IMG/VR virus record: IMGVR_UViG_3300035006_000011
Location: 2,208-66,207 of that record
Origin: a virus
DNA: 64,000 bases
Strand: one strand, 5' to 3'
A program made the position numbers and the translations under genes. A model generated the notes under the pieces. The model searched no databases and was not told where the DNA came from. It was given only the letters and a program-made list of their open reading frames with translations. Shown here piece by piece: positions 5,008 to 62,900 of the stretch (position 1 is its first letter; each line of letters opens with the position of its first letter).

Positions 5008-5031
5008 GACGGATAGATTTGTTTATCCGTC
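5008..5031. terminator. GACGGATA-N8-TATCCGTC palindrome (copy 1)
   Basis: Directly abuts the baseplate J stop codon. Confidence 0.75.
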
Positions 5032-5146
5032 TTTGAGGCGATCACATTTTCGAGGTCTATGGGAATTCCCATAGACCTACAAAACAAGAAATATTCTGAT
5101 TGGAATAATTCGGGTCCAATGCACTAAAAAATATTTTGTGCAGTTA

Positions 5147-5175
5147 TTGACACAGCGTACAGACGGCGATACTAT
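5147..5175 (+). promoter_or_regulatory. sigma70-type promoter of KilA-N cassette 1
   Basis: TTGACA-17-TACTAT. Confidence 0.75.
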
Positions 5176-5249
5176 AAATATTAAGCGGTTGAGAAAAGTT
5201 TCTGAGGCTCAATCTCAACCGCACTCCAAGGTTAATTAGAGGTATTTTT

Positions 5250-6032
5250 ATGGTACGCCAAAAAGCGTCACAAGTCATCATGCACGAGATACATGGTGTG
5301 CAAATTGGGCAAAGAAAAATAGACGGTTACATTAATGCTACGGCAATGTGTCAAGCTGGCGGTAAAAAGCTAAATGATTATCTGCGGTTAAAATCCACAA
5401 AAGAGTATTTCCATGCACTTTCTGTGGATACGGGAATTCCCGTATCCGGTAGTAGCAAGGGTTCTGGACTTGTGATTTTAACTGGCGGTAGTTTTGACGA
5501 ACAAGATACTTGGGTTCATTTCGAGGTTGCGGTTGATTTGGGTAAATGGATATCGCCGCAATTTCGCATAGCTGTCAACCGTTGGGTTGTCCAGTGGATG
5601 GCAGGTTCTCAGGTAGAACAGCAGCAATCAAGCGCGATCGCCTTCCTCGTTTCATCTGTTACCCGCGAGTATCGACCTTGGGAGGTGCATTTTACCCCTG
5701 ACTGGATACGAGAAGCTGAACGGTTAACTGGATGGTCTTGGTCTTGGGGTTGCATGGGAGGATTTATTAATAAGTCAGTCTACAATGTGTTGCCAATTGA
5801 GATGCAAGCCAGACTAGATGAAGTCAACCCACCTATTAAAGGTAAGCGAGCAAGAAAGAAGTTTCAGCACGTTACTACCACTGTTGATGAGCAAGTTATC
5901 AAACAATTAATTGCTGAAACATTGGGGATGATGCGCGGTTCTTCTTCCGAGCAAAGCTATTGGCGATCGCACTGTAATGCATATGGTAATGGCGTGCAAT
6001 TGACTTTAGTCCTTGGGGGTTGTGATGAATAG
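5250..6032 (+). CDS. KilA-N + P63C-like DNA-binding protein
   Basis: DGYINATAMCQAGGKKLNDYLRLKST and GTW/HFEVAVDLGKW-type KilA-N motifs; C-terminal RPWEVHF...LDEVNP...KKFQH P63C-like. Confidence 0.85.
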   Translation: MVRQKASQVIMHEIHGVQIGQRKIDGYINATAMCQAGGKKLNDYLRLKSTKEYFHALSVDTGIPVSGSSKGSGLVILTGGSFDEQDTWVHFEVAVDLGKWISPQFRIAVNRWVVQWMAGSQVEQQQSSAIAFLVSSVTREYRPWEVHFTPDWIREAERLTGWSWSWGCMGGFINKSVYNVLPIEMQARLDEVNPPIKGKRARKKFQHVTTTVDEQVIKQLIAETLGMMRGSSSEQSYWRSHCNAYGNGVQLTLVLGGCDE

Positions 6033-6210
6033 ACCTAGAACCCAAGCGCATATTGATGCTGACAACCGATACAAACAAACAGTAAAGCGTGTGCAGTTAT
6101 CGTTTAAAGAGGATTCAGAATTACTTACCTACTTGCGATCGCAAGTAACAACCGACGCGGAAATACCAGCGCTAATCAAACAGATAATCGAAGCCCATAG
6201 GAAAGCATAA
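6025..6210 (+). CDS. Small RHH-like DNA-binding protein
   Basis: KRVQLSF beta strand plus two helices; overlaps upstream stop. Confidence 0.65.
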   Translation: MNRPRTQAHIDADNRYKQTVKRVQLSFKEDSELLTYLRSQVTTDAEIPALIKQIIEAHRKA

Positions 6211-6285
6211 TAAAAAGCGGGAGTACAAATCCCGCTTAACTAGTCAAAAGTAGAGAAAAATGAAAAAGTTAGTTGTTGCTACATT
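6134..6285. repeat. 152-bp perfect direct repeat, copy 1
   Basis: Identical to 7286-7437; begins at T-GCGATCGC (HIP1). Confidence 0.95.
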
Positions 6286-6321
6286 CGCAGTATACCAGCT
6301 TAAAAATATTTTGTGCAGCTA

Positions 6322-6350
6322 TTGACACAATGTGTTGATGACGATACTAT
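6322..6350 (+). promoter_or_regulatory. sigma70-type promoter of KilA-N cassette 2
   Basis: TTGACA-17-TACTAT, same layout as 5147-5175. Confidence 0.75.
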
Positions 6351-6425
6351 AAATTTAAGCGGCTAAGAGAAGTTTCTGACGCTCCCTCTTAGCCGCACCA
6401 CAAAGTCTATTAAGGAATTTGCTTA

Positions 6426-7169
6426 ATGAATATAATACCAAGAAATTGGAATGGCCGCACGATCCGCCAACGCGAGGATGGATATTGGTCTGCTACCGAT
6501 ATGTGTCAGGCTTGCGGAAAGCTTTGGGGTGATTGGAGTAGATTAAGTTCTACAAAAGAATATTTGAAAGTCTTGCAAAACAAGCATTATGCTGATTCCC
6601 ATAATGGTCAACTAATTGATTCTAGTGTTGGTGGCACTCCAGAAACAACAGGTACTTGGGTTTATCGTAAAGTAGCTTTACGTCTTGCTCAGTGGTTGTC
6701 TCCTGAGTTTGCAGTGCAAGTTGACGAATGGGTGGAAGAACTACTGACCACAGGGAAGGTTGAGTTAACCCCGCCAAAAACCCAAGCGGAGATGCTTTTG
6801 ATCTACGCACAGCAATTAGTCGATCTGGAGCGTAGTCAAAAGGCGCTAGAGCAAGAGCAGGAACGGTTAAATCAAAACCAAAAGCAATTGAATCAAAAGC
6901 AGTCGGAACTGACCGACCGCGTAGAACAAGTCGAACACGAGCAAGACAGATTTAACGCACCATGTGGGCACAAATACACGGTTCTTGGTTACTCGAAAAA
7001 GTTGGGGTTGGAAATATCGCTAAAAGAGTCGAGCAATAAAGGGAAGAAAGCAGCTTGTTTGTGTCGCCAAATGGGGATTGAAATTGAACAAGTTGATGAC
7101 CCGCGTTTTGGGATGGTTGGGTTGTACCCTCAGTCAATACTTGCTCAAGTTTTTGGCGAGGGGCTGTAA
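6426..7169 (+). CDS. KilA-N protein with coiled coil and antirepressor-type C-terminus
   Basis: IRQREDGYWSATDMCQACGK...GTWVYRKVALRLAQWLSPEFAVQV; C-terminal DPRFGMVGLYP. Confidence 0.85.
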   Translation: MNIIPRNWNGRTIRQREDGYWSATDMCQACGKLWGDWSRLSSTKEYLKVLQNKHYADSHNGQLIDSSVGGTPETTGTWVYRKVALRLAQWLSPEFAVQVDEWVEELLTTGKVELTPPKTQAEMLLIYAQQLVDLERSQKALEQEQERLNQNQKQLNQKQSELTDRVEQVEHEQDRFNAPCGHKYTVLGYSKKLGLEISLKESSNKGKKAACLCRQMGIEIEQVDDPRFGMVGLYPQSILAQVFGEGL

Positions 7170-9693: not shown

Positions 9694-9698
9694 AACGA

Positions 9699-9736
9699 CA
9701 AAAAGACCATCACCTGTTAGCGTGATGGTCTTTTTG
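9699..9736. terminator. Bidirectional intrinsic terminator
   Basis: CAAAAAGACCATCAC-8-GTGATGGTCTTTTTG between convergent genes. Confidence 0.8.
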
Positions 9737-11206
9737 TTATGCCACGCGCCAAACATAAAGATGGTTATTTGCTGCACTTCCATCAATTTGAGAAGAAGAA
9801 ATCACACTGCTAGCTCCAATCGCCTGAGTTATCACGTCAATATCTAACATCGTCCCCGCTGAAAGCTGTTCAAACCGGAAGCCTTGTTGCTTGTTGGTAA
9901 ACGTGGCTTGCGTTGCTCCGTAAGCATAATTAAAAAAGTCACCAGCATCGACACCAGTACTTAAGTTCGCCAACATTGACCGGAAGCGAATTTGAACTTG
10001 CCCCTGCGACGATTGATAGTTACCTGTAATAGTTGCCTGCAATGCCACCATAAACAAATAGTTACCAGCTTCGGCAATTGTAATAATGCCATTGCTGTCT
10101 AGTATTGCACCTTGGTTTATTACCCTTGGGTTCCAAACGATTGTAGTCCGATTATCTTGCCCCAAAGCAATAACCGATGTTCTTCTTGCAAATATCAAAG
10201 GAGACGGCAACTTCCCTGTAGCAAGTTGCGCGATCGCGTCCTCAACATATTGGGCGGTCGGTACTTCCGTCCCCTTTTCACCCCCTGCAACCGGGAACGT
10301 TAGTGCGGGACGTTTCACCGCACCCGTCATCACTGGGTTATTTCGCGGTAGTCCGGCAGCAACAGTTAGGTAATTACTTAAATCCGGATTGGGAATAGAG
10401 GCTAGAGCGTCTCTAACGTCCCCTCTTGCAGCTGCCTCACTGCTTCCCGTCCAGTTGGTTGCATTGTACCCAACTATTTGCGCCCCTGTCCCACCGGTTG
10501 CACCCTTTGCTGCAATCATTAACCAGTTTGCGTTATCGCCAGTTGTAGGAGGTTGTTGATTTTGGGCAGGTGTTGCGCTTCTCCAAACATAACTATTGCC
10601 GTTGAAACTAACAATGTCGTTCAACGAGTAAATAGTGTTAACCGCATAAGCTCCACGGATTGCAAATTTTGAGGATATGCGATCGCGGTAAGTTGCCACC
10701 GTCGTCAACAACTCCGCCAACCTTGACAATCCAATATCAAACCACGGGAATTGAGACGGAATACCAATCAACGAAGTGAAAGAGACGGGAGTTGCGCTGT
10801 CGGGTGCTTGAGCGTGAAATGCGTCTTGTATTGGGATGTTTTGATTGGCAACTACACGATCAAGCAGCCGAGAGGTGGTGTCATGGACGCTTCCTGTGTA
10901 CCACTTAGAATCGGTTGCCCATTGATGAACTGGTCCAATGTAGGTAGTCCCGTCAAGTAGATAGTAACTAATAACTGATTTTGTCTCAAACAATTCCCAT
11001 TTGTAAGTCACTCCCTCTGACCCTACGCCTTGCAAATTTTGTGTCTGTGGAAGGGTGAGGGTAAACGTTGATGAAGTGATTGTCGCTTCGTATGCGCTTA
11101 CAACTAAAGTAGGGGGATTTGTAGAATTATCGATAAACGGATGATCCGGAGTTGCACGAACTAATCCTGTGATGTTGCCGCTGATCTTGCCTGTAATTTG
11201 AACCAT
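9737..11206 (-). CDS. Tail fibre/receptor-binding-like protein
   Basis: YSLNDIVSFNGNSYV...WLMIAAKGATG (CBM-like plus collagen-like start); C-terminal GIITIAEAGNYLF. Confidence 0.7.
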   Translation of the reverse strand: MVQITGKISGNITGLVRATPDHPFIDNSTNPPTLVVSAYEATITSSTFTLTLPQTQNLQGVGSEGVTYKWELFETKSVISYYLLDGTTYIGPVHQWATDSKWYTGSVHDTTSRLLDRVVANQNIPIQDAFHAQAPDSATPVSFTSLIGIPSQFPWFDIGLSRLAELLTTVATYRDRISSKFAIRGAYAVNTIYSLNDIVSFNGNSYVWRSATPAQNQQPPTTGDNANWLMIAAKGATGGTGAQIVGYNATNWTGSSEAAARGDVRDALASIPNPDLSNYLTVAAGLPRNNPVMTGAVKRPALTFPVAGGEKGTEVPTAQYVEDAIAQLATGKLPSPLIFARRTSVIALGQDNRTTIVWNPRVINQGAILDSNGIITIAEAGNYLFMVALQATITGNYQSSQGQVQIRFRSMLANLSTGVDAGDFFNYAYGATQATFTNKQQGFRFEQLSAGTMLDIDVITQAIGASSVISSSQIDGSAANNHLYVWRVA

Positions 11207-12127: not shown

Positions 12128-12926
12128 CTAGAAGTCAAATAGTTTTTGCTGAAACTGTTCGCCAACAAGTCGAGCAAACAAATCTTTAAATTCTTGTTCA
12201 GAAGGGCAGGCATTGACAATCATCAGTACCTTGTCAAAGTGCTGTTTGTGCTTTTCAGTGGCGTTTTCTTCTAGCCATTGGTGGATGGTTTGCTTTCTAT
12301 GTCCGTTGCTTTGGACAGGATTGTTCTTGTCTAGCTTTGCTCGTTCGTTTGCATCTAAAGTGTGATAAATGAACGACCACATCCAGTTGGCTAACTTAGG
12401 GTGGTTGCGTCCCACTTTTGAGAAAAGATGCCACCTTGTCCATATTTTTGTCGCCAAACAACGGATGAGACTTGCGAGGTTTGTCCATGATGCGGTTATC
12501 GTCTTCGCGTCGTTGCTCAATTGTGCGGCAAGTACCGTAAACTTGGTCAAAGCGATCGCGTAAGGAGTCTTTGCCCAAAGCATCAAGAATGATTTCAGCT
12601 TTCACATTGTCGTTTTTATCCTCAAACCGCCATAAAGTAAAAGCATCGTCAAGCGACAATGTTTCGGCATAGCGGGACTGCTTTCCGTCGTAATATTTGA
12701 CCGCTAGGGAAACCCAGGTAAACCCTTTACTAGCAAGTCTTCGAGCTTTGTCAGGCGCGTGGTACGGCAACCTAGCTAAATAGTACTTAGCAACACTAAT
12801 TGCTTTCAATACCTGAGACTGGCTCATCCGATACTCGCTAGTCTCTGTTATCCGAATTGCATCAAATTCTAAATCGCCGATATATAGTTTAACTGCCTCG
12901 GCTGGGCTATAATCTTTTTTAGCCAT
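12128..12926 (-). pseudogene. Frameshifted P63C-family antirepressor-like gene
   Basis: ORFs 12396..12926 and 12128..12586 join by a +1 indel near 12415-12420 (CTC AAAA GTG versus CTT AAA GTC in paralogue at ~47295). Confidence 0.8.
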
Positions 12927-13093
12927 CTTCGTACCTCGAATACGTTTATGGTTGCGTGGGCTGATTGATAACCGGGATGTCTCACCATCCCTTTGCCCAT
13001 TTAAATAATTGTATCAGCAAAAATACACCGTGCTTGCATCGACACAATAAATATTTTTGCTGTAAACTACTGGAAGTATATACAACTGAAGTT

Positions 13094-13306: not shown

Positions 13307-13446
13307 CGAATGAATTAGCCTTATGGCAAGCTGCATTAAATGCGATCGCTATTGCTAGAGCTTGTCAAAACATTTACACGCCAAGGACGGATAACCTTGA
13401 TGCTTGGCTAGCAGCAGAGGAGAGATTAAGTGCCGACAGCAGGTGA
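13303..13446 (+). CDS. Small hypothetical protein (47 aa, not in track)
   Basis: ATGA overlap with HTH stop; MTNELALWQAALNAIAIARACQNIYTPRTDNLDAWLAAEERLSADSR. Confidence 0.4.
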   Translation: MTNELALWQAALNAIAIARACQNIYTPRTDNLDAWLAAEERLSADSR

Positions 13447-14308
13447 AGCTTTCCGAATTGCCCAACGCTTTGACAAGTCTTTGGCGACTGCTGAAGACAA
13501 CACCATTGCCCGAATTAACCAAATTCTGCTCAATTCCTATCTCAAGTTAGAAAGGACAATGCGGTTAAAGTGGGACGAAATGGAGCGCGATCGCCCTTTT
13601 CTTCCAGCCCAACGGCAACTACTCGTTACTGAGCAGCTAGGCTATTTGTTGCAGTTGATTAACCCACAGCAACAGTCCGCAATTGAAGCGATGTTTGGAG
13701 AGTTGTTAGCCTTTGCGTCAAACCACGGAGTTAACCTTGCTGATGCTTTATTGGGCGATGCCGCTATGTTTTCGGCTGTACCAGTGGAGGCGATCGCTTA
13801 CTCAGCCACAGAATCCTATAATCGACTCCTCCGACATGGGGATGATTTTGCCTCTAAAGCTAGCATTGCAATTGGTGAGGGATTGGCTCAGGGATGGGGA
13901 GCGCAGAAAATAGCAGGAATATTGAAAGAGCAATTAGGAGTTACAAGGTGGAGGGCAGAAGCGATCGCCCGTACCGAATCAATCAAAGCATACAGTAACG
14001 CCAGTCAGCAAAAATATAATGATGCAGGTGTTGAGGAAGTGGTATGGGTTGCTGTTAGGGAGGGGGTCTGCAAATTTTGTACTTGGCGTAATGGCAAGGC
14101 TTTTAAATTAGGTTCCATCATCCACCCTGGTCACGTAAATTGCAGGTGCTGCCTGATTTGCAGGGTAGGAGATATTGCAGATAATGATTTTTGGCTAAAT
14201 TATTCAGATCAATTGACAGGCGATCCGGGACTAATGCCATTTGAAAAAGCTGCGGGAATGGCGATCCCGCCTAAACCGACATGGATACCAAAAAGAAAAG
14301 ACGGATAG
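13430..14308 (+). CDS. Minor head protein (SPP1 gp7 / Mu F-like)
   Basis: RAEAIARTES ... CKFCTWRNGK ... HPGHVNCRC signature. Confidence 0.9.
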   Translation: MPTAGEAFRIAQRFDKSLATAEDNTIARINQILLNSYLKLERTMRLKWDEMERDRPFLPAQRQLLVTEQLGYLLQLINPQQQSAIEAMFGELLAFASNHGVNLADALLGDAAMFSAVPVEAIAYSATESYNRLLRHGDDFASKASIAIGEGLAQGWGAQKIAGILKEQLGVTRWRAEAIARTESIKAYSNASQQKYNDAGVEEVVWVAVREGVCKFCTWRNGKAFKLGSIIHPGHVNCRCCLICRVGDIADNDFWLNYSDQLTGDPGLMPFEKAAGMAIPPKPTWIPKRKDG

Positions 14309-14352: not shown

Positions 14353-15105
14353 CTACTGAATACCGGGGATTGGAAGTTGTCCTATGCATTCAGGACGCGC
14401 TACCCGCGTGTTTTGTCGCTTTTTCTGCTGGTGAAATCGGAAATATTGCTCGGTTTTAACTCGGATTACAGCAGGTAATTTGGTAATATCTGTGCCACGA
14501 CGCGATCGCAACGACATTACCAAGATATTGAACGTATCAATGCTTAACCGCATCTTCCCGTCCACTAGTTCAAAATCAACCGATTCAACAAATGCGACTT
14601 GCACTGCATCTTTAAGTTGGTGCTTATGGACAATACCCGATACTTGATGCAACTCTTCTAATGTTTTCGGGAAAGCAATTTGACTTTCTGTTTCGGTTGA
14701 TTTTGATTCAAGTTGAGCAATGCGTGCTTTGAGTGTTTCAACTTCTGGGTTCGGATCGGAGAATAGCGATCGCTCCAAGTTGACGCGGTATTGCTTCTCT
14801 ATTTGGATCAAGTAATCAAGGTACTCTGCCCCTGCGACAGTGTTAGCTCGTGCTAACGCAAACTTGTAACTATCGACTGTTAAGTAAATCTTATTGAAAT
14901 CCTCCGAATGATTATAAAGCAGCGCCAATTGGCGCAAGCCTTGCTCTACAACAGGCTTGAGTCCTGAGCGTTTAAGTAAGTATCTTTTTGCGTCTGATCT
15001 TCTGCTATAGCCAAAGCTTTCCCAAACGGCATCAAAGTCAATCGGGAATTGTTCCCCGTCGCGCTCTGCTTCGAGCGCATCTAAAATGTATGTTTCTGTT
15101 AGCAT
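14353..15105 (-). CDS. AntA/AntB-like antirepressor
   Basis: FPIDFDAVWESFGYSRRSDAKR; IYLTVDSYK; ends QLPIPGIQ. Confidence 0.75.
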   Translation of the reverse strand: MLTETYILDALEAERDGEQFPIDFDAVWESFGYSRRSDAKRYLLKRSGLKPVVEQGLRQLALLYNHSEDFNKIYLTVDSYKFALARANTVAGAEYLDYLIQIEKQYRVNLERSLFSDPNPEVETLKARIAQLESKSTETESQIAFPKTLEELHQVSGIVHKHQLKDAVQVAFVESVDFELVDGKMRLSIDTFNILVMSLRSRRGTDITKLPAVIRVKTEQYFRFHQQKKRQNTRVARPECIGQLPIPGIQ

Positions 15106-15234
15106 GGTTTTGTCGCCTAGTAGAGTAGGTGATCTGTCAGCGGCAATGGGCTAGGTGCAAACTAGCCTTGCTGGCATTAAAATATATTGTATCTTAAAAC
15201 GCACAAATAATTAATTAGCGACACAAAATAATTT

Positions 15235-15807
15235 ATGGTACGTTATTTTCTCGACACAGAATTTATTGAAAACGGGTCAACTATCGATTTGATTAGCATT
15301 GGAATTGTTTGTGAAGACGGACGGGAATATTACGCTATCAATTACGATTGCGATCGCACCAAAGCGGATAATTGGGTGAAAAAGAACGTCTTAGCATTTT
15401 TACCTCCTGAACCATATCCACAGCTTTTTAGGGATAGAAAAGCTTTTGAAGAGTCAGAAGTATATAAACAAGGATGGAGAAACAGGGCACATATAGCTAC
15501 AGAAATCTTAGAGTTTGTTAGGTGGAATAAGAAAAAGCCATATTTTGTAGAAGGTGAAAAGCCTGAGTTTTGGGGTTATTATGTATCTTATGATTGGGTT
15601 GTTTTCTGTCAACTATGGGGGAAAATGATTGACTTGCCAAAAGGCTTCCCAATGTACATAAATGACATCAAGCAACTTTGCAACCAGCTAGGCGATCCAG
15701 AATTGCCAGAACAAGGAAAGGAAGAACATCACGCGCTTAATGATGCTAGATGGAATAAAAGGGCATGGCAGTTTCTAAAAGACAGAGAGGGATTTGGGAG
15801 AAAATGA
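15235..15807 (+). CDS. DEDDh 3'-5' exonuclease (Rv2179c/DUF5051-like)
   Basis: YFLDTEF, SYDWV, HHALNDARW. Confidence 0.85.
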   Translation: MVRYFLDTEFIENGSTIDLISIGIVCEDGREYYAINYDCDRTKADNWVKKNVLAFLPPEPYPQLFRDRKAFEESEVYKQGWRNRAHIATEILEFVRWNKKKPYFVEGEKPEFWGYYVSYDWVVFCQLWGKMIDLPKGFPMYINDIKQLCNQLGDPELPEQGKEEHHALNDARWNKRAWQFLKDREGFGRK

Positions 15808-20349: not shown

Positions 20350-20559
20350 ATGTGCAACAAAGAATCCAACAGTGGCCGCAAAATGCGACTACTGGCGATT
20401 CCCAGAAAAAGGCATAAAGTATTCTGTGTCGCTGAATAACAGCGCGTGCGTTTTAGTATACAATATTTGAAATGCAGAAGGCTAGCGCTAACTAGCCCGT
20501 CAACACTGCACGCATCCCTTAGACAAGGATGCTATCCACATTTCTAAGCTAACTAGAAC

Positions 20560-21364: not shown

Positions 21365-21389
21365 GACGGATAAAGTTAATTTATCCGTC
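21365..21389. terminator. GACGGATA-N9-TATCCGTC palindrome (copy 3)
   Basis: Provides the KKDG-TAA end of the portal gene; convergent genes. Confidence 0.8.
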
Positions 21390-22913: not shown

Positions 22914-22966
22914 GGTTGTGCCGTTATCAACACGTTAAAATCATGTTAATGGTTTTGGGCGCAACT

Positions 22967-46654: not shown

Positions 46655-46791
46655 AAAATTATCTAAAAATATTTTGTGTTGCTAGATTATATTATGTTTC
46701 TTCTGATATACAATGTTTTGAGATGGGCACGGCGCGTCAACGCCGTTACTTTGAACAGCCCACCCACCACAATCGTAGGTTCAGTACGAAG

Positions 46792-47616: not shown

Positions 47617-47643
47617 GACGGATACCTATCATGGTTGTCCGTC
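47617..47643. terminator. GACGGATA-N11-TGTCCGTC palindrome (copy 8)
   Basis: A- and T-tracts on both sides; convergent genes. Confidence 0.8.
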
Positions 47644-47662: not shown

Positions 47663-48382
47663 TTACCGTTGCGCCATTTCAGGTTGCCAGTGGTTTAACC
47701 TGTCTCGAAAATCAAGTAGTTGGGCATCACTCATAAGCGATCGCGCTTTGACGTTATACCAGGTCATCGTGAGGTGTCTTGCTTGGTCAGATTGAATTCC
47801 TTTACGCTTCATTAACGAGCTGGTTTCGTCTATCAACATTTCTCGATCAATGCGATTAGGTGGAAGGTTTGCAGAATTAAAGTGAGGAGTGAGTTCACGG
47901 TTTTGTGGTTGCGTTTCCTCTGGTTGCCCAAGTCTTGCCTGTACGGTAGCGATGATGCCAGCCCAGTTAGCATCCTTATTCCAGTCTGCCTTGATTCGTT
48001 GTTTAGTGGTTGCATCGTAAACCCTGGCAAACACTACGGTTTCTTCTCCCGGTGCGACAGCTAAAATTAATGGCTTTGACACATCAAACTGGGCGATCGC
48101 AAGTAAAAAGGTCTTAGCAAAATTAGTCTCTATTCCTGTGCGAACAATGTAAAGTTCATCGGATTGAATAACAATATCAAGCTTTACGTTTGTTTTACCC
48201 TTGTACTCTTTATTAGTTAGCCGTAGTTCTTGCAGCTTCCCGCACAGTCCTCGTTCAGCGACAGGAATTGTTTGTTGGGTGTCTATATTAAACTTGTACC
48301 AGAGTGACGAAGCGCTGTCCTCGCCAGCGCGAACATATAAATAGATAGGTTCTGGAGGATTGCATAAACCAAAATTAATCAT
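47663..48382 (-). CDS. Conserved hypothetical protein (possible ssDNA-binding/recombination)
   Basis: 239 aa in replication region; beta-rich N-domain, helical C-domain. Confidence 0.55.
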   Translation of the reverse strand: MINFGLCNPPEPIYLYVRAGEDSASSLWYKFNIDTQQTIPVAERGLCGKLQELRLTNKEYKGKTNVKLDIVIQSDELYIVRTGIETNFAKTFLLAIAQFDVSKPLILAVAPGEETVVFARVYDATTKQRIKADWNKDANWAGIIATVQARLGQPEETQPQNRELTPHFNSANLPPNRIDREMLIDETSSLMKRKGIQSDQARHLTMTWYNVKARSLMSDAQLLDFRDRLNHWQPEMAQR

Positions 48383-52195: not shown

Positions 52196-52240
52196 AGCGC
52201 ATTCGGGAATTGAACCCGGATGTAGCCTTTAACTTGCGCT
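52196..52240 (-). ncRNA. tRNA-like minihelix (acceptor stem + T-arm, no D or anticodon arm)
   Basis: AGCGCA...CCGGG-TTCAATT-CCCGA-ATGCGCT on minus strand. Confidence 0.4.
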
Positions 52241-53621
52241 AGAGAGAAAACTTGCTAATGATATCGTTATCGCCGTTTTCCATAGCTTTCGCTTTAATTC
52301 CCGCAATAACTTCGTTTAGTCGATTGTTTGGCACGTCTGGGTACAAGTTTTTGAGGAACTCAACTATATCGGTTGTGGAAGTTTTTCTTAATTCGAGTGC
52401 GATCGCCCCCCAAGTCCAATCGCTATTTTCATGCCGCTCACTTTGATGTGTGTCTTTGATTTCTTGTGGTGTAGGTGTGGGTGCAATCGCAGTGGTCTTG
52501 GTGAATTTGTCGCGGTCGTATCCCGAATAGTTCGGCAATTCGGGCATTGGCAACCATTCACCAACATTGGGAGAGTAAAAGCATCTTTCTCTAGGGGAAG
52601 TTTTACAAGCCAGCCGCAACACCTCAGTTTTAATTTTGCCAAGCGTCCCGTACTTACCCCAACTATTCACGGCGTTGTCAATGTTCTTACGATGACAAAC
52701 TGCAAACGTGGGGAATTGTCCTCTTGCGTTAGAATCAATTCCCAGATTTGCAAGGTTAGTCACTTGAGCCATCATCCAGAGGTTGCGCTTGTCAGCGTTG
52801 CCCGTGGTCACTAGTTTGCTGATTTTCTCAGCCAAATAGTTGTCTTTTGTTCGGCTGAATGCGTCACCCACTAAAGTGCTTTCTGTGATTACCAGAAGCC
52901 AGGTGTCACTTTGAATTGAAAGGAATTGCTCAAAAGCTTTTTTGAAATTATCAACAACTTCAGCGTCGCTCATGCTCCCAGATTTAAAAGCCTGGTATAC
53001 GTCCGCAACGCCTTCATAATAGGTTTTTTCGTGGTCGGTTCCTTTGGGGTCAACGACATAAACCCGCACCCCTCCAGTTTTCTTGATATCGCGCAACGTG
53101 TTTGACACCCACATATCCTTACCATCGCCCGATCGCCCTAATATCAAACAACTTGCCCGTGAATAGAGACTGAGTTGTTCAATCGGATTAACTTGCTTAA
53201 AGTCACTCTCAAGTACCATCTGATAAGCAGCTTCTTTTACGTCCTTGGACACATTAACAAGTTTTTCTCCTGCCTCTACAACTGTTCTCATCTCTAAGGT
53301 GTAGTTATCTTCCCCGATGATTTGTTTATAGCTTTTCATTTGGTCAGCATTCATATAGGCGACTGGGGAAACTTCGCCAGTTAGAACCTTCATGCGATCG
53401 CTCCCCCGTTGCCTAGAACCCAGGATTGAAGTACCAACCGTGCCAGCTAGCAGAAATGCGCCTGCGATCGGGTTAATCAATACTGCAGCGACAATGCCAC
53501 CAAGTACCCCACCAAGTAAAATCAGTTCGGAATTGCTTTGCTCCATGCCTTCGAGTACTTCGTAGACTAGCTGGTTTTTTTCTTCGTTTTCTGCCTGTGG
53601 TTCGTTGTTTTCGTTAATCAT
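52239..53621 (-). CDS. Membrane-anchored P-loop ATPase (VirD4/FtsK/HerA-like)
   Basis: N-terminal TM hairpin; LILGRSGDGKD Walker A; VYVVDPKG; LLVITES Walker B; WMMAQ. Confidence 0.75.
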   Translation of the reverse strand: MINENNEPQAENEEKNQLVYEVLEGMEQSNSELILLGGVLGGIVAAVLINPIAGAFLLAGTVGTSILGSRQRGSDRMKVLTGEVSPVAYMNADQMKSYKQIIGEDNYTLEMRTVVEAGEKLVNVSKDVKEAAYQMVLESDFKQVNPIEQLSLYSRASCLILGRSGDGKDMWVSNTLRDIKKTGGVRVYVVDPKGTDHEKTYYEGVADVYQAFKSGSMSDAEVVDNFKKAFEQFLSIQSDTWLLVITESTLVGDAFSRTKDNYLAEKISKLVTTGNADKRNLWMMAQVTNLANLGIDSNARGQFPTFAVCHRKNIDNAVNSWGKYGTLGKIKTEVLRLACKTSPRERCFYSPNVGEWLPMPELPNYSGYDRDKFTKTTAIAPTPTPQEIKDTHQSERHENSDWTWGAIALELRKTSTTDIVEFLKNLYPDVPNNRLNEVIAGIKAKAMENGDNDIISKFSL

Positions 53622-53697
53622 AAAAAAATAATGTGTTGTTGCAATTGGTAGTGGTGGAGTTGAACCACCGAAAAGCCTCGAACTTCCTACCAGTTAA

Positions 53698-54354
53698 TTA
53701 CGGATTTGATTCGCCGGATCTAACAGACTTGGCGGCTTTGAACATTTCCCAAAGTGCGAGGAATATTTCTAAAGCCCATTCGACACCTTTTACTGTCAGA
53801 AAGAACTTTGCAATGTTTCCGTAGTCGAGTTGGTCGAATTTGCCCGCGTAGATAATTCCGAAAATATCGGCCCAGTTACCAGACTTGACAAAGGGGTAGT
53901 ACATATAACAGACGATGGAGTCGATAACGTATGCTATATTTTTGACTGTTTCTAGATGTGCATAAGCCCATATAAGCCCTTGCGACGCGACTTTTTTAAG
54001 GCCCTTTACTACTTTTGAGTCTCCGTTACGAGGTTGGTAGTTGCTTGAGTTGTTAACCCCATTTAGTAATTTTTGAATTAGTTGTCTATCCGTTTTAATG
54101 ATGCGGGGAAATAGTTCAAAGGACTGAACCACTGAATAAGTTATTACCCCTAGCAGCCAGTAAATCCCCACGTTCAACCATCGAGCGACTCCCGAAAATA
54201 GATTCTCAGCTGGTGCAAAAAGTGAGCCAGCCCAATTTTGCATTAATGCGGTATAAGGAGCGACGTTGTTTACCACCAATAGAAACAACAATGTTCCGAC
54301 CCCTGCAATCATAAGGAAAATTACTGGTCGTGTAGGTTTAAAGCTTAGTTTCAC
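53698..54354 (-). CDS. Multi-pass membrane protein
   Basis: Several hydrophobic segments. Confidence 0.75.
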   Translation of the reverse strand: MKLSFKPTRPVIFLMIAGVGTLLFLLVVNNVAPYTALMQNWAGSLFAPAENLFSGVARWLNVGIYWLLGVITYSVVQSFELFPRIIKTDRQLIQKLLNGVNNSSNYQPRNGDSKVVKGLKKVASQGLIWAYAHLETVKNIAYVIDSIVCYMYYPFVKSGNWADIFGIIYAGKFDQLDYGNIAKFFLTVKGVEWALEIFLALWEMFKAAKSVRSGESNP

Positions 54355-54417
54355 TTGAGATATCCTTGTTTGTAAGTTAAGTTTTTTTTGATGGGCGTAC
54401 CAGTTGGTACGCCTGTT

Positions 54418-54885
54418 TTATTTGGCAACGGGTTGTGAGTAAACACCACCCCGATATCGCTTGATACGAACCGCGATAGTCGCTCTGCTTCCTGTAAAAG
54501 CGATCGTTTTGGCATCCGGTTTGCCATCATCACCCAAAAGTGCTGTGTTCCCGTAGGCATCGCAAATGACAGAATTTTTCGGCAGTCCCACGCCAGTGTG
54601 CCTGTCAACCACCTCTGTATTTTTGTCGATACTTGGAAACGTAAAGCCAGACTCGCTGGAACCTCTAGCAAGTAGTTCGCAACTGGAATAACGGGCGATC
54701 GCAATTTTGTCTTGCGCTAGTCGAATGGTTTCAGAGTTTTCTACATCGCTCAGTACCTCCCGCTGACGGCTGTACTGCTCCCTGGCCTTGTTCATACCAG
54801 AGAATTGATTTCCCCCCATTGTCATGCTGCCGATTGTCCCCAACAAGGAAATTCCCACCATAATTGTTTTTTGGTCAAATTGCAT
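54418..54885 (-). CDS. Membrane-anchored/secreted protein
   Basis: N-terminal hydrophobic helix, coiled coil, two Cys. Confidence 0.7.
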   Translation of the reverse strand: MQFDQKTIMVGISLLGTIGSMTMGGNQFSGMNKAREQYSRQREVLSDVENSETIRLAQDKIAIARYSSCELLARGSSESGFTFPSIDKNTEVVDRHTGVGLPKNSVICDAYGNTALLGDDGKPDAKTIAFTGSRATIAVRIKRYRGGVYSQPVAK

Positions 54886-55485
54886 CTACTTTTCCTCCAG
54901 TAAGAAATCCCAAGGATTTTTATTTGTTTCAGTTTTTGGCTCAATTAACCAAGCCCAAGGCTCATCAGTCAGCTTGTCGTTAGCATCTGCCATCAACGAG
55001 TCAAAGCTCTTTTCTTCCGGCTTAACTATCCGGCTGTCGATGATTTTGTCAGCATTCATTTTGATAGCTTTGCTTTTGAGAATTGCTTCGATACTCGCAT
55101 TGATGAAGTCGTCAGCCTGTGTTATTTCCGCACCTTTGATTGTTTCAATAAACGCTTCATCTCTGAGACTGAGAAGTGCTTCGGCATCAGCCACTCCCCT
55201 CAAGATTGCAGCGTCAATCATCTGCTTTTGTTTCTCGATGCTTAAACTTTGAGCTTCGATTTTTTGAGGTGACTTGTCAATTTCACCTTTCTTTCTTTTA
55301 GCGATCGCACCTTTTGGTTTAGGTAAAGATTTTTGTGTCTCGCCTTTCAGAAGCGACCTAATTTGATTAACGTCGCTATCGTCAAATTGTTGCTTTTCAG
55401 AAAACAAGCTACTGATTGCGTTTTGAATCGCTTGTTCAGAATATTCGTCACCTAAAATTTCTACCAAGTCGTTAAAGTTCAACAT
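54886..55485 (-). CDS. Helical hypothetical protein
   Basis: Coupled within the 55887->52239 operon. Confidence 0.65.
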   Translation of the reverse strand: MLNFNDLVEILGDEYSEQAIQNAISSLFSEKQQFDDSDVNQIRSLLKGETQKSLPKPKGAIAKRKKGEIDKSPQKIEAQSLSIEKQKQMIDAAILRGVADAEALLSLRDEAFIETIKGAEITQADDFINASIEAILKSKAIKMNADKIIDSRIVKPEEKSFDSLMADANDKLTDEPWAWLIEPKTETNKNPWDFLLEEK

Positions 55486-55488
55486 AAT

Positions 55489-55887
55489 CTAACCCTCGCT
55501 TTGTTTGTAATTGTTAGCCCAAGTTTCGTAAGCTTCTCGGCTTAACACGTCTGTACTAAAAGTCTTGAATTCTTCGAGTATCAACTCTAACGGTTTATTT
55601 TGACTCATTCGCCTATAAGCGATCGCACTCAAAACCAAGCGCCTGTAGCCATCAAGTAAAGGTGGCTTTTTGGGAAGAGTTATAGACCCATTGCTGTAAT
55701 AGTAATAGCGGAGTCGCGCTATTTTATTTACTATTCCTCCCTCCCATCGCCCAAGCGTGCGCCTGTTTATTCCTAACAGATTGGCGAACGTGGTTTTGTC
55801 CATCAAATTTTTTGTACAAAATGTCGCAATTGCATCCTGTTTCCTACATGAATCCGCGACATCCGTCGCTAGTAAAAATGTACTCAT
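55489..55887 (-). CDS. HTH DNA-binding protein
   Basis: KTTFANLLGINRRTLGRWE. Confidence 0.7.
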   Translation of the reverse strand: MSTFLLATDVADSCRKQDAIATFCTKNLMDKTTFANLLGINRRTLGRWEGGIVNKIARLRYYYYSNGSITLPKKPPLLDGYRRLVLSAIAYRRMSQNKPLELILEEFKTFSTDVLSREAYETWANNYKQSEG

Positions 55888-56388: not shown

Positions 56389-56882
56389 TTTATATTCTCC
56401 AGTAATCAAGGTGCAAATGATGTGCAATATCAATAGGGAGTTTGAGGTTACCATCTTCAGTTTCAACAATAACCATTCGCTCTGTGTTCCGCAATCGCCA
56501 CTTTTTAACAGATGCAATTGCGATGTTTGATTTAAGTTTCGGATAAATGCACATAAATCAAAACTAATATTAAAGCAAGAATTGCAAACATTCCCATAAC
56601 CGTTACCTCCTTTATCCACCACTTCCTGAACCGTCAACGCAATCATTGGTAGTCGAATTTTCTCCAACTTTGCACCACCGATAAGCGTTAGCCGGATGTG
56701 CGTAAATCAAAAACAATACCAAAAGTGCGATTACTCTCATGCCTAACTCCTAAAAACAAACAATAATGTTGTGTATCTTGCGTATCGAGCGTAAGCCCTG
56801 TTTCTTACTTCGTCGCTGTCGTTTGGGTTAATTCCTAAAGCAACGTTGTACTCGTGGGTCGCTAATTGTTTAATTAGCTTTT

Positions 56883-57080
56883 TCATAATTTAATCCCCGT
56901 AACTGAGTCGGCTTCTAATTGATAGTTGTTGTTATCGATAAACCATTTGTCGTCCGACGGTCTGCACGGCTCAGAAGGAACCGCAATTCCACTAACTAAA
57001 TCAAGAACAATTTGTTTACTCTCTTGTTCTGAAAGACTTGCCCAATACTGCTCATCTTTGCAATCAACTTTGTACGACAT
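56883..57080 (-). CDS. Small acidic hypothetical protein
   Basis: 65-aa ORF. Confidence 0.45.
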   Translation of the reverse strand: MSYKVDCKDEQYWASLSEQESKQIVLDLVSGIAVPSEPCRPSDDKWFIDNNNYQLEADSVTGIKL

Positions 57081-57174
57081 CTTTTTTTACCCCGGAATAT
57101 TGATACCGGGTAGGCGATCGCCCAAGCATCGAACTTGGTTGATGTCCAATCAGCGATCGCGTAGCAGACTAGAA

Positions 57175-57323
57175 TTAAAAACCGTTTTCTTTTTGCTTCT
57201 CGTTAATCGCCTTAGCTATTTCTCTCTGAGAAGCACCGCTGTCTTGCTTTTCTCTGATTTCGTTAGATTGACTGTCTGTCAAACCGTAACGCTGTCTTTT
57301 GCCTTATCGTAATTACGAGCCAT
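57175..57323 (-). pseudogene. Small HTH-like gene with 1-nt deletion
   Basis: Adding one A at GCA AAA GAC gives MARNYDKAKRQRYGL...GASQREIAKAINE. Confidence 0.4.
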
Positions 57324-57561
57324 GTTTACCTTGTGTTTTTGGATTACTGTATCGAAAAAGCGATGTCTCCGACGACTTGTCGGTTCGCTCAGAATTGAAC
57401 TGAGCCAAGTTGACCACAAAATCGCGTAAAGCAGTAAAGGGCATCACAAAGAGCGAACCTTTTTTCAGCGACTGCGATCGCTGCTTGGTTTTCGTTAGTT
57501 CTGCCAAGAAACTAATTATTTAGATAATTGCAGGTTCTGCGATGTTGAATGTGTTTCTCAT
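57313..57561 (-). pseudogene. Small gene with in-frame TAA
   Basis: ATG at 57561, TAA at 57522-57520, in frame with track ORF 57313..57507. Confidence 0.35.
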
Positions 57562-57572
57562 TCATGTACACA

Positions 57573-57601
57573 AGTTTACCCCCTATCAGAGGGTAAGTCA
57601 A
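57573..57601 (-). promoter_or_regulatory. Leftward promoter with palindromic operator
   Basis: TTGACT-17-TAAACT; spacer contains TTACCCTCTGATAGGGGGTAA imperfect palindrome. Confidence 0.6.
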
Positions 57602-57701
57602 TATCTATCTGCCTATGGTTTTTATTGAAAGTTGCGGCAATATTCTATGGTTTAGTCGCCATAGAGTGAAATATGCTAGTTTTACTGGCGCTGCGGGAAT
57701 A

Positions 57702-57902
57702 ATGACTATATATATAAGGATTAAAGAAATGAGGGCATTATCAGGCATTACTCAGCAGGCGCTCGCCGATCGGTGCGGGATGAAGATAAACGCGATCCAG
57801 AAATACGAATACCAGCAAAATAAGAGCATCCCGTTTGATACGTTGGAAAAGTTATGCGTAGCCCTGGAATGCAGTCCAGGTGATTTACTGGAAATAAAAT
57901 AA
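57702..57902 (+). CDS. Cro/C1-type HTH repressor
   Basis: ITQQALADRCGM...SIPFDTLEKLCVALECSPGDLLE; divergent from leftward operon. Confidence 0.88.
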   Translation: MTIYIRIKEMRALSGITQQALADRCGMKINAIQKYEYQQNKSIPFDTLEKLCVALECSPGDLLEIK

Positions 57903-58003: not shown

Positions 58004-58525
58004 CTAGCGTAGCAATGCTTGATGTTCTTGGCGGCATTCAACCACTAGTTGTACGTACTCGGAGTTAGTTAATCCGCCAAATAGAGTTGCTCGGTATGCT
58101 TGTACTGCTTCTCTTTTGATTTTGGCTTTGGCACCCGGCTCTATTTCAACTATTTGAATTGATTGGAAGGCGATCGCGCATTTGGTTTCAAGACTTTCTG
58201 CCATCAGGGCGGCGACTATAGCGTCGGCTTTGATGTTGTCAAAAGCCAACTGCCTACGCCAAAAAGCTTCTGCTATTTCGCGGGGAACAGCAACAATAAA
58301 GCCAGCCGATGCTGTTTCAGCAGCTACTTGACGTAATGTGAAACCTGCCTCCAGTAACAATTTACCGCGCTTTGTTCGTAAAAAAGACGTAATGTCAGAT
58401 TGCTTTTTCCCAACAACTTCCGCCGTTTGAGTTTGGCTGAAACAGTAGTTACCATCCGGTAATCTAAATGCCTCAACTGTGATATCAGCTATTTAAATTG
58501 TGGAGCGAATTGCTTTAAGATTCAT
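58004..58525 (-). pseudogene. Antirepressor-like gene with premature stop
   Basis: ATG 58525, in-frame TAA at codon 11, then IADITVEAFRLPDGNY, same family N-terminus as 24434 and 12926. Confidence 0.75.
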
Positions 58526-60889: not shown

Positions 60890-60900
60890 ATTTTAAAAAG

Positions 60901-60919
60901 GACGGATAAGTTATCCGTC
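60901..60919. terminator. GACGGATA-N3-TATCCGTC palindrome (copy 11)
   Basis: Between 60928 gene stop and MTase start. Confidence 0.7.
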
Positions 60920-60927
60920 CTGTAGAA

Positions 60928-62367
60928 TTAAGCAGTAAGTGGCAAAGCGTTGGACAATACGGTAACTTCGGTCATGTGAACCGAAGTTCTTACGCCTTTT
61001 AAGGTTTGAACATCAAGCCACTCAGTTTCAACGTCATGGCGGATTACTATCATTGTTTCGCCGTCAACTTCAATTTCTGTGCCCGGAACAAGCTGGGCTT
61101 CAGGCTTTTTTGCGATCTCTTCCTCTACTGCCTCCTTTAAAGTCACTGGAACCCAGTCAAGATCCGAGCGATCGCCCGTTAGTTCGATATAGTCGAATAA
61201 TAGTTCGACGCATCGACCATTAGCAGAGAGCAACTGGCTTCGTTTTTCTTTCTGCACCTTTGTCGCTTTTGCGAGACTAAGCTCTTTGAATCCTTCTGCT
61301 TTGCAATCCACAAGCGATCGCACGTCTTGCCAGGTCAAAGTGTTCCAGCCATATGCCTTAGCGATTTTCGCTAAGAATTGTTCATATTTAAGGTCTGGTG
61401 CTTCTACAAGTGTTTCTGCGGGTGCCGATTCCTGATAACTGGAAATCCATCGTAGTTCACCCACATCGTAGCAAGTCTCTACTGTTTCACCATTCAAAAG
61501 TTGTCCAACAACTACTATATCGCCGCTAAATCTGATGACAGTTCCCAGCCCTCCGGTCGGAACAGAGACAATATCATCTATTTCCAAAACACGTAATGAT
61601 AATGAGGCGGATGACTTTACAGCCGATTTCGGTTCCTCGACTAATTCGACGGCTTCTGATGGCGGCATCGCATCGATATGTTCATCAATGGTTGAATAAG
61701 GGTTTGTGGTTTTATTTTTCAATTCCTGAACTTTGGCATCTCTGTCCGCACGAACCGCGAAAAAGTCTTGTTCAATTTGCTCTTTCTGTGCTTTTATGCC
61801 GTCGTACCGTTGTTGATAATTCTCGTTCTCTTTTCTAAGCTTGAGAACTTCTGCACTCAAGCTATCGTTTTCACGTATTTCTGACTTGAAAAAATCAAGT
61901 TTTTTGTTTAATTCCTGATAATCCAAAATCAATGACTTGTTCTCTGATCGCAAGGCTTCCACCTCGTCAATCTGCGAATTGTGCGCTTGGTTCGCTACTT
62001 CTGCTCGTAACGCATCCATTTCACGAGATCGTTCATCACTCGCCGCCACTTCTCTTTCTAATGCCCTTCGTACCCTGGCTAGTTCTGCTTTCGTTTCAGC
62101 AAACTCTAAATCACCATCAAGATTAATCGAAAATTCCTCGCCACTTGCAGCCTCATGCAATGCGATCGCCCAAGCTTTCAAACTATCAGCCGTCAATCCT
62201 TTGTCAAGCATTACAGCGCGATGTTCTGCTGTCTTTTCTACCAGCCAATTGGCTTCTTTCTGGCATTCTGTGTATGGCGCAACACTTGCTGTCAACTGTT
62301 GCAACTGTGCTGTCAATGCTTCAATCTGTTGCTGCATATTCGCCACTTCTGTAAATTGAAATTGCAT
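60928..62367 (-). CDS. Coiled-coil protein with C-terminal SH3/KOW-like segments
   Basis: Long heptad region; beta-rich GTVIRF and GETMIV segments. Confidence 0.65.
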   Translation of the reverse strand: MQFQFTEVANMQQQIEALTAQLQQLTASVAPYTECQKEANWLVEKTAEHRAVMLDKGLTADSLKAWAIALHEAASGEEFSINLDGDLEFAETKAELARVRRALEREVAASDERSREMDALRAEVANQAHNSQIDEVEALRSENKSLILDYQELNKKLDFFKSEIRENDSLSAEVLKLRKENENYQQRYDGIKAQKEQIEQDFFAVRADRDAKVQELKNKTTNPYSTIDEHIDAMPPSEAVELVEEPKSAVKSSASLSLRVLEIDDIVSVPTGGLGTVIRFSGDIVVVGQLLNGETVETCYDVGELRWISSYQESAPAETLVEAPDLKYEQFLAKIAKAYGWNTLTWQDVRSLVDCKAEGFKELSLAKATKVQKEKRSQLLSANGRCVELLFDYIELTGDRSDLDWVPVTLKEAVEEEIAKKPEAQLVPGTEIEVDGETMIVIRHDVETEWLDVQTLKGVRTSVHMTEVTVLSNALPLTA

Positions 62368-62618
62368 AATACTCGGTTCCTGTGTAATTGTGTCGTTGTT
62401 TTTTAGGAACCACCCAGCTAAATTAAAAGTAGTTTATTGTGCTGCCGTCTGGCATTGAGTTGCTGGGTGGTAGTTTTTCTATTGGGCGAGAACTTTTGCG
62501 TCCATAAACTCAACAATTGCATAAACGGCTTTCTTTCTTTGATTCAAGTCCAACTGCTGCCACGTATTTGCCTAACTGTGTCTATCTCATTTTTAGTTGG
62601 TTCAAATATCGACACAAA

Positions 62619-62819
62619 CTAGTCAATCAAATTCACCCCATCAGCGATCGCTAACTCTTTCGCCACCTTCGCCACACAATCCAAAAATCGCTGCGGCTGG
62701 GGGTGCTTGTCTGCAATCGACGCGATCGCCTTCATTTCCTCTGCAAACGGCATATAAGTCTTAGCTGCCGCTGTCTTCCAAATTCGCCCAAACGTTCCGC
62801 TTTCCGTTCTTACTTGCAT
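62619..62819 (-). CDS. Small hypothetical protein
   Basis: 66-aa ORF. Confidence 0.5.
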   Translation of the reverse strand: MQVRTESGTFGRIWKTAAAKTYMPFAEEMKAIASIADKHPQPQRFLDCVAKVAKELAIADGVNLID

Positions 62820-62881
62820 TTTTGTGCTATTTAATCAACAATGTCTATATATTGACACAACCGTTCAGAATGGTCAATAGG

Positions 62882-62900
62882 GACGGATAAATTATCCGTC
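62882..62900. terminator. GACGGATA-N3-TATCCGTC palindrome (copy 12)
   Basis: Abuts the Prim-Pol stop codon. Confidence 0.75.

Follow-up and report, generated by a model that had tools for sequence, protein, structure and literature searches.

The 64,000-nucleotide window analysed here, by which the whole stretch of DNA is meant (IMG/VR record IMGVR_UViG_3300035006_000011, positions 2,208 to 66,207), is most of a ~73-kb myovirus-like prophage. Its host genome, G000 (7.9 Mb, 82 contigs, 41% GC), is that of a cyanobacterium, as judged from its 5750 sites of the HIP1 sequence GCGATCGC. The prophage, located at C22:21600-94600 (window -3900 to 69000), encodes terminase, portal, major head protein, tail sheath, baseplate wedge and tape measure, together with a helicase, a C5-methylase, a primase and DnaB. 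It is read as a prophage because a large serine recombinase and a split luciferase-like monooxygenase gene enclose this gene set; Pfam positions 1-110 of the split gene lie to the left and 107-309 to the right, and the recombinase gene overlaps the left fragment. Dispersed through the prophage is a family of hairpins with the 8-nucleotide arms GACGGATA and TATCCGTC, which look like bidirectional intrinsic terminators and at which accessory gene cassettes end. The twelve hairpins of the window (P1 to P12) and two incomplete sites are as follows.

P1, 5008 to 5031: 8-bp arms, loop GATTTGTT; flanked by the baseplate-wedge gene (stop at 5006) on one side and by the KilA-N cassette 5250-6032 on the other.
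P2, 14297 to 14326: 13-bp perfect stem, loop ACAA; the Mu-F-like gene 13430-14308 takes its stop codon from it, and the reverse cassette gene 14353-15105 apparently terminates here.
P3, 21358 to 21396: 17-bp stem; between the cassette gene 20560-21342 (plus strand) and the portal gene (minus strand), whose stop codon lies in the right arm.
P4, 23586 to 23632: 47-bp perfect palindrome with 23-bp arms, -38 kcal/mol on both strands.
P5, 25195 to 25220: 10-bp stem, then T8; at the 3' end of the cassette gene 24434-25168 (plus), which is convergent with 25227-26342 (minus).
P6, 30997 to 31040: stem of 18 bp, its outer arms AACATCAAAG specific to this site; separates the head module from the reverse ORF6N-type cassette 31196-32095.
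P7, 36726 to 36777: 24-bp stem, loop AAGC; both the helicase gene 36770-39547 (minus) and the cassette gene 35743-36714 (plus) have their 3' ends here.
P8, 47606 to 47654: degenerate right arm TGTCCGTC, with a U.G wobble on the plus-strand RNA; at the convergent junction 47147-47494 (plus) / 47663-48382 (minus).
P9, 51047 to 51093: right arm CATCCGTC; between minus-strand genes.
P10, 57947 to 57980: 12-bp stem; downstream of the Cro/C1-type helix-turn-helix (HTH) gene 57615-57902 (plus), which is convergent with 58004-58360 (minus).
P11, 60899 to 60921: short 19-bp-core palindrome with a T-tract on the transcribed side only; between two minus-strand replication-module genes.
P12, 62881 to 62901: short 19-bp-core palindrome abutting the stop codon of a primase-like gene, with no clear T-tract.
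Half-site, 13386 to 13393, plus strand: occupies the loop of a different small hairpin, upstream of 13430; an indel relative to the related prophage of genome G509 has its junction here.
Decayed hairpin, 35326 to 35333, plus strand: A-tract and left arm, the right arm being reduced to a TATC remnant; directly after a stop codon, at a synteny break relative to G509.

The two 8-mers occur 30 times in the window, against 0.96 +/- 0.97 expected from dinucleotide shuffles. The original prediction, made from the letters of the window, had named twelve palindromes. Ten of these are perfect GACGGATA-N3-15-TATCCGTC palindromes (at 5008, 14300, 21365, 23600, 25195, 31007, 36740, 57951, 60901 and 62882), where 0 were expected; the remaining two, at 47617 and 51057, are real and degenerate, each with one base changed in the right arm (TGTCCGTC and CATCCGTC, respectively). 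The half-sites it gave near 13385 and at 35326 were recovered, and that at ~51101 proved not to be an exact site, the nearest being the right arm at 51076. Six exact single 8-mers within genes had been missed (21783, 27327, 29898, 33394, 45676 and 60420).

The whole genome contains 12 perfect palindromes, all in C22:24203-94535 (window -1352 to 68980), two of which lie beyond the window near its edges; with the degenerate copies the total is 14 hairpins in ~73 kb. An exact scan found zero motif palindromes in the other 7.85 Mb of G000, where the single 8-mer occurs about once per 50 kb. The shared stem is thus a feature of this family and not a generic host terminator, and the outcome that the original prediction had named as refuting it, a motif just as common in the host, was not observed. 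The symmetric form A4-stem8-loop-stem8-T4 is present at 25 loci genome-wide, nine of them in the prophage, and no other stem is repeated among these 25. A second, distant prophage-like region of G000 (C29:177093-178010), with a head protein 38% identical to that of the window, has no motif palindromes.

Beyond G000, a pattern scan of public genome contigs, IMG/VR and metagenome contigs returned only lone, chance-level matches in unrelated bacteria. There were no Rfam family matches within the window, and in the literature the two 8-mers turned up only in oligonucleotides of no relevance. Two public contigs with multiple matches, L080 and L093, were set aside as carrying unrelated tandem or REP-like repeats. 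In L080, a contig of a Thermoanaerobaculia metagenome-assembled genome (MAG), the hairpins at 2384-2425, 5370-5430 and 6920-6985 consist of tandem GGACGGATA 9-mers and their complements, and these three in 7 kb look like a chance use of the same word.

Relatives were sought in ~790 cyanobacterial genomes with the A-type pattern (389 of the family and 400 of the order) and in the 389 with the compensated pattern. Several A-type copies were present in only two other genomes of the 389, G509 (nine perfect) and G719 (five), and in 0 of the 400 other genomes of the order; reversed-pattern controls gave 0-1 matches. The G509 copies, which amount to 12 intergenic motif hairpins when degenerate arms are counted, lie on three contigs that make up one prophage, 70-95% identical to that of G000 and extensively rearranged. 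Those of G719 lie in a ~14-kb remnant that has only the serine recombinase and a three-gene ATPase module in common with G000, at 27-35% amino-acid identity. The G509 and G719 elements interrupt the same nitrogenase-component-1-type (Oxidored_nitro) gene, in the manner of the split gene of G000.

A compensated version of the arms, GACGGGTA/TACCCGTC, characterises two further elements. L378, an 11-kb metagenome contig reached through portal homologues (portal 60% identical), has three such hairpins, and G440, the only one of the 389 genomes with several copies of the variant, has it three times in a reduced element like that of G719, next to a hybrid hairpin in which the two arms are of different types. 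The 22 kb retrieved of L375, a close relative (portal 73% and head protein 77% identical), contain no motif, and G365 and G357, relatives found via the major head protein, were also without it.

The prophages of G365, whose head protein is 62% identical, have a recurring 22-24-bp palindrome of their own, CTCACTWCGWW-NN-WWCGWAGTGAG, instead of GACGGATA. It looks like an operator set, with some copies adjacent or overlapping, and lies at these positions.

G365 C357, 6320 to 6370, 13821 to 13844 and 21742 to 21787.
G365 C58, 5572 to 5595.

The recombinase and the ATPase module are the only genes common to all motif-bearing elements, and the module is also present in the motif-free L375. Its 460-aa protein has no Pfam or PDB sequence match.

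Window, 52239 to 55887, minus strand: conserved ATPase module, comprising the 460-aa protein and two or three small partners.
G719, C774:5940-9350: homologous module.
G440, C125:24229-26640: homologous module.
L375, 1300-3287: homologous module.

The motif family is therefore lineage-restricted, patchy and uniform within each element, and it is older than the split between the G000 and G509 prophages. As a separate observation, a 19-bp palindrome, GACGGGTA-AAA/TTT-TACCCGTC, is kept at one locus of the host in several genomes, which belong to two genera (L382-L385 and L387, from G706, G714, G715, G718 and G743), with its 3-nucleotide loop in either orientation and no element genes nearby.

The motif takes the form (A)n-GACGGATA-(R)A...loop...T(Y)-TATCCGTC-(T)n, its core being most often 24 nucleotides long (16 of 38 copies; range 19-28). 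Arms are separated by 1-12 nucleotides, and the loops are A/T-rich and unrelated to each other. Stems are perfect over 8-24 bp, pairing often extending outward into site-specific sequence (10-24 bp), and the predicted RNA folding energy is -11 to -38 kcal/mol on either strand. Both A-rich and T-rich 6-nucleotide flanks are present in most of the 31 hairpins examined in G000, G509 and G719.

Hairpins are concentrated at gene ends. By crude open reading frame (ORF) calls, eight of the 12 convergent junctions in the window have a hairpin, which is eight of the nine that have intergenic room. Five tandem 3' ends also bear one, and no copy lies in the divergent promoter region 56667-57615 beside the Cro/C1-type HTH gene. 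The lone convergent junction with room and without the motif has a hairpin of another sequence.

Non-motif hairpin, 9698 to 9737: ACAAAAAGACCATCAC...GTGATGGTCTTTTTGT, flanked by A/T.

As noted in the original prediction, an arm supplies the K-D-G-stop ending of four genes: 13430-14308, the portal gene 21381-22913, 22871-23608 and 23610-23861. In P4, two convergent genes both end in ...ALQKDG-stop inside the palindrome, which fixes the last seven codons of each. A generic terminator scanner predicted sites no more numerous than in shuffled sequence, and the motif hairpins nonetheless ranked at the top. On account of this A-tract/stem/T-tract form and the placement at 3' ends and convergent junctions, the hairpins look like bidirectional intrinsic terminators, in keeping with the earlier proposal. 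No promoter is fused to them: sequence conservation stops at the A/T tracts, and the promoter regions of the cassettes are separate repeats 60-150 nucleotides away or at the other side of the gene.

Arm variation in the 38 hairpins follows a simple pattern, all departures being changes from A-T to G-C or wobble-type half-steps. Position 6 is G-C in six copies (three of three in L378 and three of four in G440, the fourth being the hybrid) and A/C in one; position 7 is T/G in one; and position 8 is G-C in two copies, both in G509, and A/C in one. P9 pairs by G.U on the transcribed strand (-26.8 versus -22.1 kcal/mol), and its orthologue at G509 19495 has the fully compensated arms GACGGATG/CATCCGTC. 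Changes of this kind, with wobble intermediates, match what a pairing constraint predicts, and such a constraint would be the reason that stems stay the same while loops saturate. The use of G.U on the transcribed strand as proof of selection at the RNA level was set aside as weak, as only P9 is clean, P8 is ambiguous and the copy at G509:7942 lies inside an ORF.

A pairing constraint is insufficient to account for the presence of one variant per element (position 6 is A-T in G000, G509 and G719 and G-C in L378 and G440), which needs either copying from hairpin to hairpin or a co-evolving reader. Single 8-mers bear on the same question. Six lie within genes, against ~1 expected (Poisson p ~5e-4), and three of these (33394, 45676 and 60420) are kept at orthologous positions in G509. 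In G509, the site in the methylase gene takes the form of a full A-tract hairpin inside the ORF. Arms also occur tail to tail: an everted pair, TATCCGTCCT-N15-AGGACGGATA, lies inside an ORF at window -1193 to -1159 (C22:24362-24396), 130 nucleotides from hairpin P0, and similar everted arrangements are found at 27305/27327 and 29898/29937.

The uniform variant per element and the half-site excess are best explained by a sequence-specific reader. The motif would then be a self-propagating, phage-restricted terminator word with element-specific variants (GACGGATA versus GACGGGTA), read by a factor encoded in the lineage, either an RNA antiterminator or terminator factor or a DNA silencer with numerous scattered sites, as with the stoperators of Cluster A mycobacteriophages or the conserved inverted repeats of phiC31; the arm variant would co-evolve with this factor. 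This would fit the identity of the arms across 14 copies with unrelated loops (two with a degenerate right arm) and in elements whose common proteins are only 27-35% identical, the ~10-fold enrichment of unpaired half-sites, including within genes, and the presence of HTH genes directly upstream of P4 and P10. As an account of the whole family it is nonetheless doubtful. The arm spacing of 1-12 nucleotides makes a fixed dimer on double-stranded DNA unlikely; the sites are at 3' ends and not at promoters, with none in the cI/cro-like intergenic region; and long site-specific outer stems with A/T tracts are typical of hairpin terminators, not of operators. L375 shares the same backbone without the motif in its 22 kb, and no candidate protein emerged beyond the recombinase and the ATPase module. 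Moreover, a uniform variant could also arise by copying after a compensatory change. Should such a factor exist, the accessory genes of prophages would have a global switch of a new kind: a hairpin-specific protein, binding RNA or DNA, could shift every cassette boundary at once between the lysogenic and the lytic state. Alternatively, it could drive the copying of the stem into other terminators.

Accessory cassettes end at the hairpins. Their genes are paralogous, have shuffled domains and belong to the KilA-N/P63C, Bro-N and ORF6N types or to families without a name. Two of them are as follows.

14353 to 15105, minus strand: cassette gene, paralogue of 43599-44285 and 40011-40787, apparently hairpin-terminated by P2; its promoter region is repeated at -2331 to -2206 and 20413-20485.
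35743 to 36714, plus strand: cassette gene present in G000 and absent from G509, inserted against P7.

Three indels between the two prophages have edges at hairpins. The first is a 1044-nucleotide unit of G509, comprising an A-tract, a hairpin, a reverse gene and a promoter, that lies within what is a TAATG stop/start overlap in G000. The second consists of P2 and the reverse gene 14353-15105, present only in G000 in place of a small G509 gene, and rewrites the last five codons of the Mu-F-like gene. The third is a 1092-nucleotide cassette (35743-36714) present only in G000, flush with the outer arm of P7, whose 52-bp hairpin is otherwise 52/52 identical in G509.

Rearrangements also have their joints at hairpins. 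The Bro-N cassette is beside the integrase in G000 and, in G509, between two hairpins inside the P10 junction. The P3 hairpin stays beside the 20560-like gene in G509, with the portal gene on its other side. The G509 palindrome PAL22424 has a neighbour of P8 on one side and a neighbour of P5 (the gene 25227-26342) on the other, as an inversion between two palindromes would produce. At the position of P6, G509 has another cassette and no motif hairpin. Overall, 11 of 13 hairpin junctions are broken or adjacent to a cassette indel, against 14 of 37 others (p=0.004), and the possibility raised in the original prediction, that the palindromes mark where modules and cassettes are swapped, is supported in this form.

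Recombination may pass through the arms themselves. At both orthologous sites with a recognisable loop (P1, whose orthologue is at G509 C177:11733, and P7), the loop is the exact reverse complement relative to its flanks, from which it is inferred that the arms recombine or template-switch. These inverted loops, together with the abutment of cassettes on hairpins and a modal unit, AAAAAGACGGATA-N8-TATCCGTCTTTTT, that has the lox-like 13-8-13 geometry with A-tracts, could suggest core sites of a site-specific recombination system (attC/integron- or lox/dif-like) that inserts and inverts cassettes. This possibility, also raised earlier, is highly improbable. No match to PF00589 (tyrosine recombinase) was found in the G000 island or the G509 prophage contigs, the only recombinase being the large serine integrase at the end of the element, and the spacers differ in both length (1-12 nucleotides) and sequence, which blocks strand exchange in known systems. 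In addition, the cassettes differ from those of integrons in bringing their own promoters and in lying either way round, and at nucleotide resolution the P7 cassette junction lies outside the spacer.

The comparison with G509 also bears on the proposal that the ~24-nucleotide palindrome is a very small mobile element in its own right, non-autonomous and similar to the small dispersed repeats (SDRs) of Nostoc or to REP/REPIN sequences, that enters loops or stems without cassettes during phage replication. In the 38-nucleotide P11 spacer, with conserved flanks, G509 has a different, generic GC-rich hairpin; P6 lacks a motif counterpart there; and the turnover of positions is fast relative to backbone divergence, with no orthologous positions in common with L378. 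The nested anatomy, in which a conserved inner unit sits on site-specific outer stems, and the hybrid hairpin of G440 would also fit. Mobility of this kind is nevertheless unlikely to account for the family, given zero copies in 7.85 Mb of host DNA that has many hairpin terminators and a single clean stem-only replacement among gains and losses that are mostly tied to whole cassettes. For the REP-like element that had been suggested, no transposase gene of its own was found: PF01797 (Y1/RAYT) is absent from C22, from G509 C177/C236/C1023 and from G719 C774, and no Y1/RAYT transposase occurs in any of the elements, with matches confined to other contigs of G000, G509 and G719.

The explanation favoured here, to which a probability of roughly 60% is assigned, is that the hairpins form a terminator module peculiar to this lineage, which moves together with promoter-gene-terminator cassettes and acts as the joint of these cassettes. 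This explanation takes in the observed distribution, anatomy, positions and conservation in relatives of the hairpins, and the indels at their edges. The copies would form one family of bidirectional intrinsic terminators, in RNA an A-tract, a GACGGAUA(RA) stem, a short A/U-rich loop and a U-tract, a form identical from either strand. The family would belong to temperate, serine-recombinase-integrated, gene-interrupting myovirus-like elements of HIP1-rich cyanobacteria. In these elements the hairpins would close most prophage transcription units, notably the self-contained accessory cassettes for KilA-N, Bro-N, ORF6N and P63C-type proteins that lie between the structural and replication modules. 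When a cassette is duplicated, inserted or moved, its hairpin would be carried along, and it may occasionally be copied alone; the common stem would thus reflect the origin of the hairpins from each other by copying. Under the pairing constraint, stems would change slowly through G.U intermediates while loops drift and flip. Since the same ~13-nucleotide arm is present in both orientations in every copy, the hairpins would be preferred joints for the exchange or inversion of cassettes and modules.

Several points weigh against this explanation. Termination is read from hairpin anatomy; P1, P6 and P12 are without good T-tracts; and the asymmetry of the A/T tracts shows no overall association with gene orientation in the 31 hairpins, fitting it in a few cases (P0, P2, P5 and P11). 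The invariance of arm positions 1-5 is partly circular, as the searches required those bases. Strict breaks of adjacency, the narrower sense of the swap-point proposal, are not significantly enriched (6 of 13 hairpin junctions versus 9 of 37 others, p=0.13), and the broader association partly follows from the hairpins marking the ends of transcription units, which viable rearrangements respect anyway; it also comes mainly from comparison with one fragmented MAG-like relative, G509. Arms of 8-13 nucleotides are short for ordinary homologous recombination. The difference between P11 and its G509 counterpart is in the stem only, with no cassette involved, which suggests stem-only copying outside the cassette model. 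Finally, there are ten unpaired 8-mers, six of them in genes, where ~1 is expected.

Further features of the prophage concern its cassettes, edges and composition. Three families of repeated upstream (promoter or leader) regions precede accessory cassette genes, and the two halves of the luciferase-like gene flank the element.

Upstream repeat family 1: 24307-24454, 46665-46810 and 12920-12963; also in three copies in the G509 prophage.
Upstream repeat family 2: -2331 to -2206, 15111-15237 and 20413-20485.
Upstream repeat family 3: 5124-5247 and 6299-6420.
Luciferase-like gene, left fragment: L265:9238-9669.
Luciferase-like gene, right fragment: window 68990-69691 (L266:5545-6246).

The density of HIP1 sites is 19-22 per 10 kb in the prophage, against 3-9 in the rest of C22 (10-kb bins, C22 20001-100000) and a genome mean of ~7, so that the prophage is 2-3 times denser; its GC content is 0.42-0.445, against ~0.40 outside.

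Among known systems, the developmentally excised elements of heterocystous cyanobacteria resemble this one in splitting a host gene, whereas the element described here is an apparently complete 73-kb myovirus-like prophage. Its relatives interrupt nif-type genes. The hairpins could be of practical use in delimiting cassettes and modules in such poorly annotated elements. DNA uptake sequences of Neisseria and Haemophilus are recognised by the competence machinery and occur throughout the host genome, roughly once per kb. As in the present family, inverted pairs of one short word form many terminator stems, but here the hairpins of the word are absent from the host outside the prophage. The stoperators of Cluster A mycobacteriophages and the conserved inverted repeats (CIRs) of phiC31 are DNA sites for repressors, with fixed geometry and orientation bias. 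They also occur in a dozen or more dispersed copies in a temperate phage, many near gene ends. The hairpins do not fit repressor sites of this type, as they have variable spacing, extended stems and A/T tracts, with no copy in the 56667-57615 divergent promoter region.

The SDRs of Nostoc, as described by Elhai and colleagues in 2008, are reportedly repeats of 21-27 nucleotides of filamentous cyanobacteria, in eight families, some hairpin-forming, with hundreds of copies host-wide, and are said to have been inserted, apparently, so that host hairpins were preserved or extended. The likeness, compared by description only, is in unit size (modal 24 nucleotides here), whereas the present family is confined to a prophage lineage and is not host-wide. 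REP/REPIN-RAYT systems similarly involve short extragenic palindromes at gene 3' ends, with many copies of one terminator-capable stem (PMC3116915). In contrast, the prophage family has no RAYT, no conserved GTAG head, no host-chromosome copies and a low copy number.

The closest described phenomenon is that of the PeSLs (promoter-early stem-loops) of T4-type phages, small conserved motifs combining terminator and promoter, which lie at the borders of accessory genes and through which indels arise between relatives (Comeau et al. 2014, PMC4122927; Arbiol et al. 2010, PMC2839356). In both cases a short regulatory motif with a terminator stem-loop is present in many copies in one phage genome, flanking small accessory genes, and the edges of the motif are where related phages differ by indels, replacements and shuffling. 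PeSLs are composites of a terminator and an early promoter, arranged as direct repeats in lytic T4-like phages, whereas here only a perfectly palindromic, orientation-free terminator of ~24-34 nucleotides is conserved, the cassette promoters are separate, and the carrier is a temperate, gene-interrupting cyanobacterial prophage. Next closest are the terminators of morons in lambdoid prophages. Morons, a concept of Juhala and Hendrix, are promoter-gene-terminator cassettes wedged between the modules of lambdoid phages, as the cassettes here lie between phage modules. In this prophage, by contrast, one strictly symmetric stem with compensated arm variants serves ~14 sites, including backbone operons. 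With its compensated arms and flipped loops, the family could provide a small natural system for the evolution and spread of terminator stems. It would be a clear case, in a temperate phage of cyanobacteria, of a repeated motif that insulates cassettes and marks points of exchange, and would carry the concept of PeSLs and morons to phages other than T4-like and enterobacterial ones.

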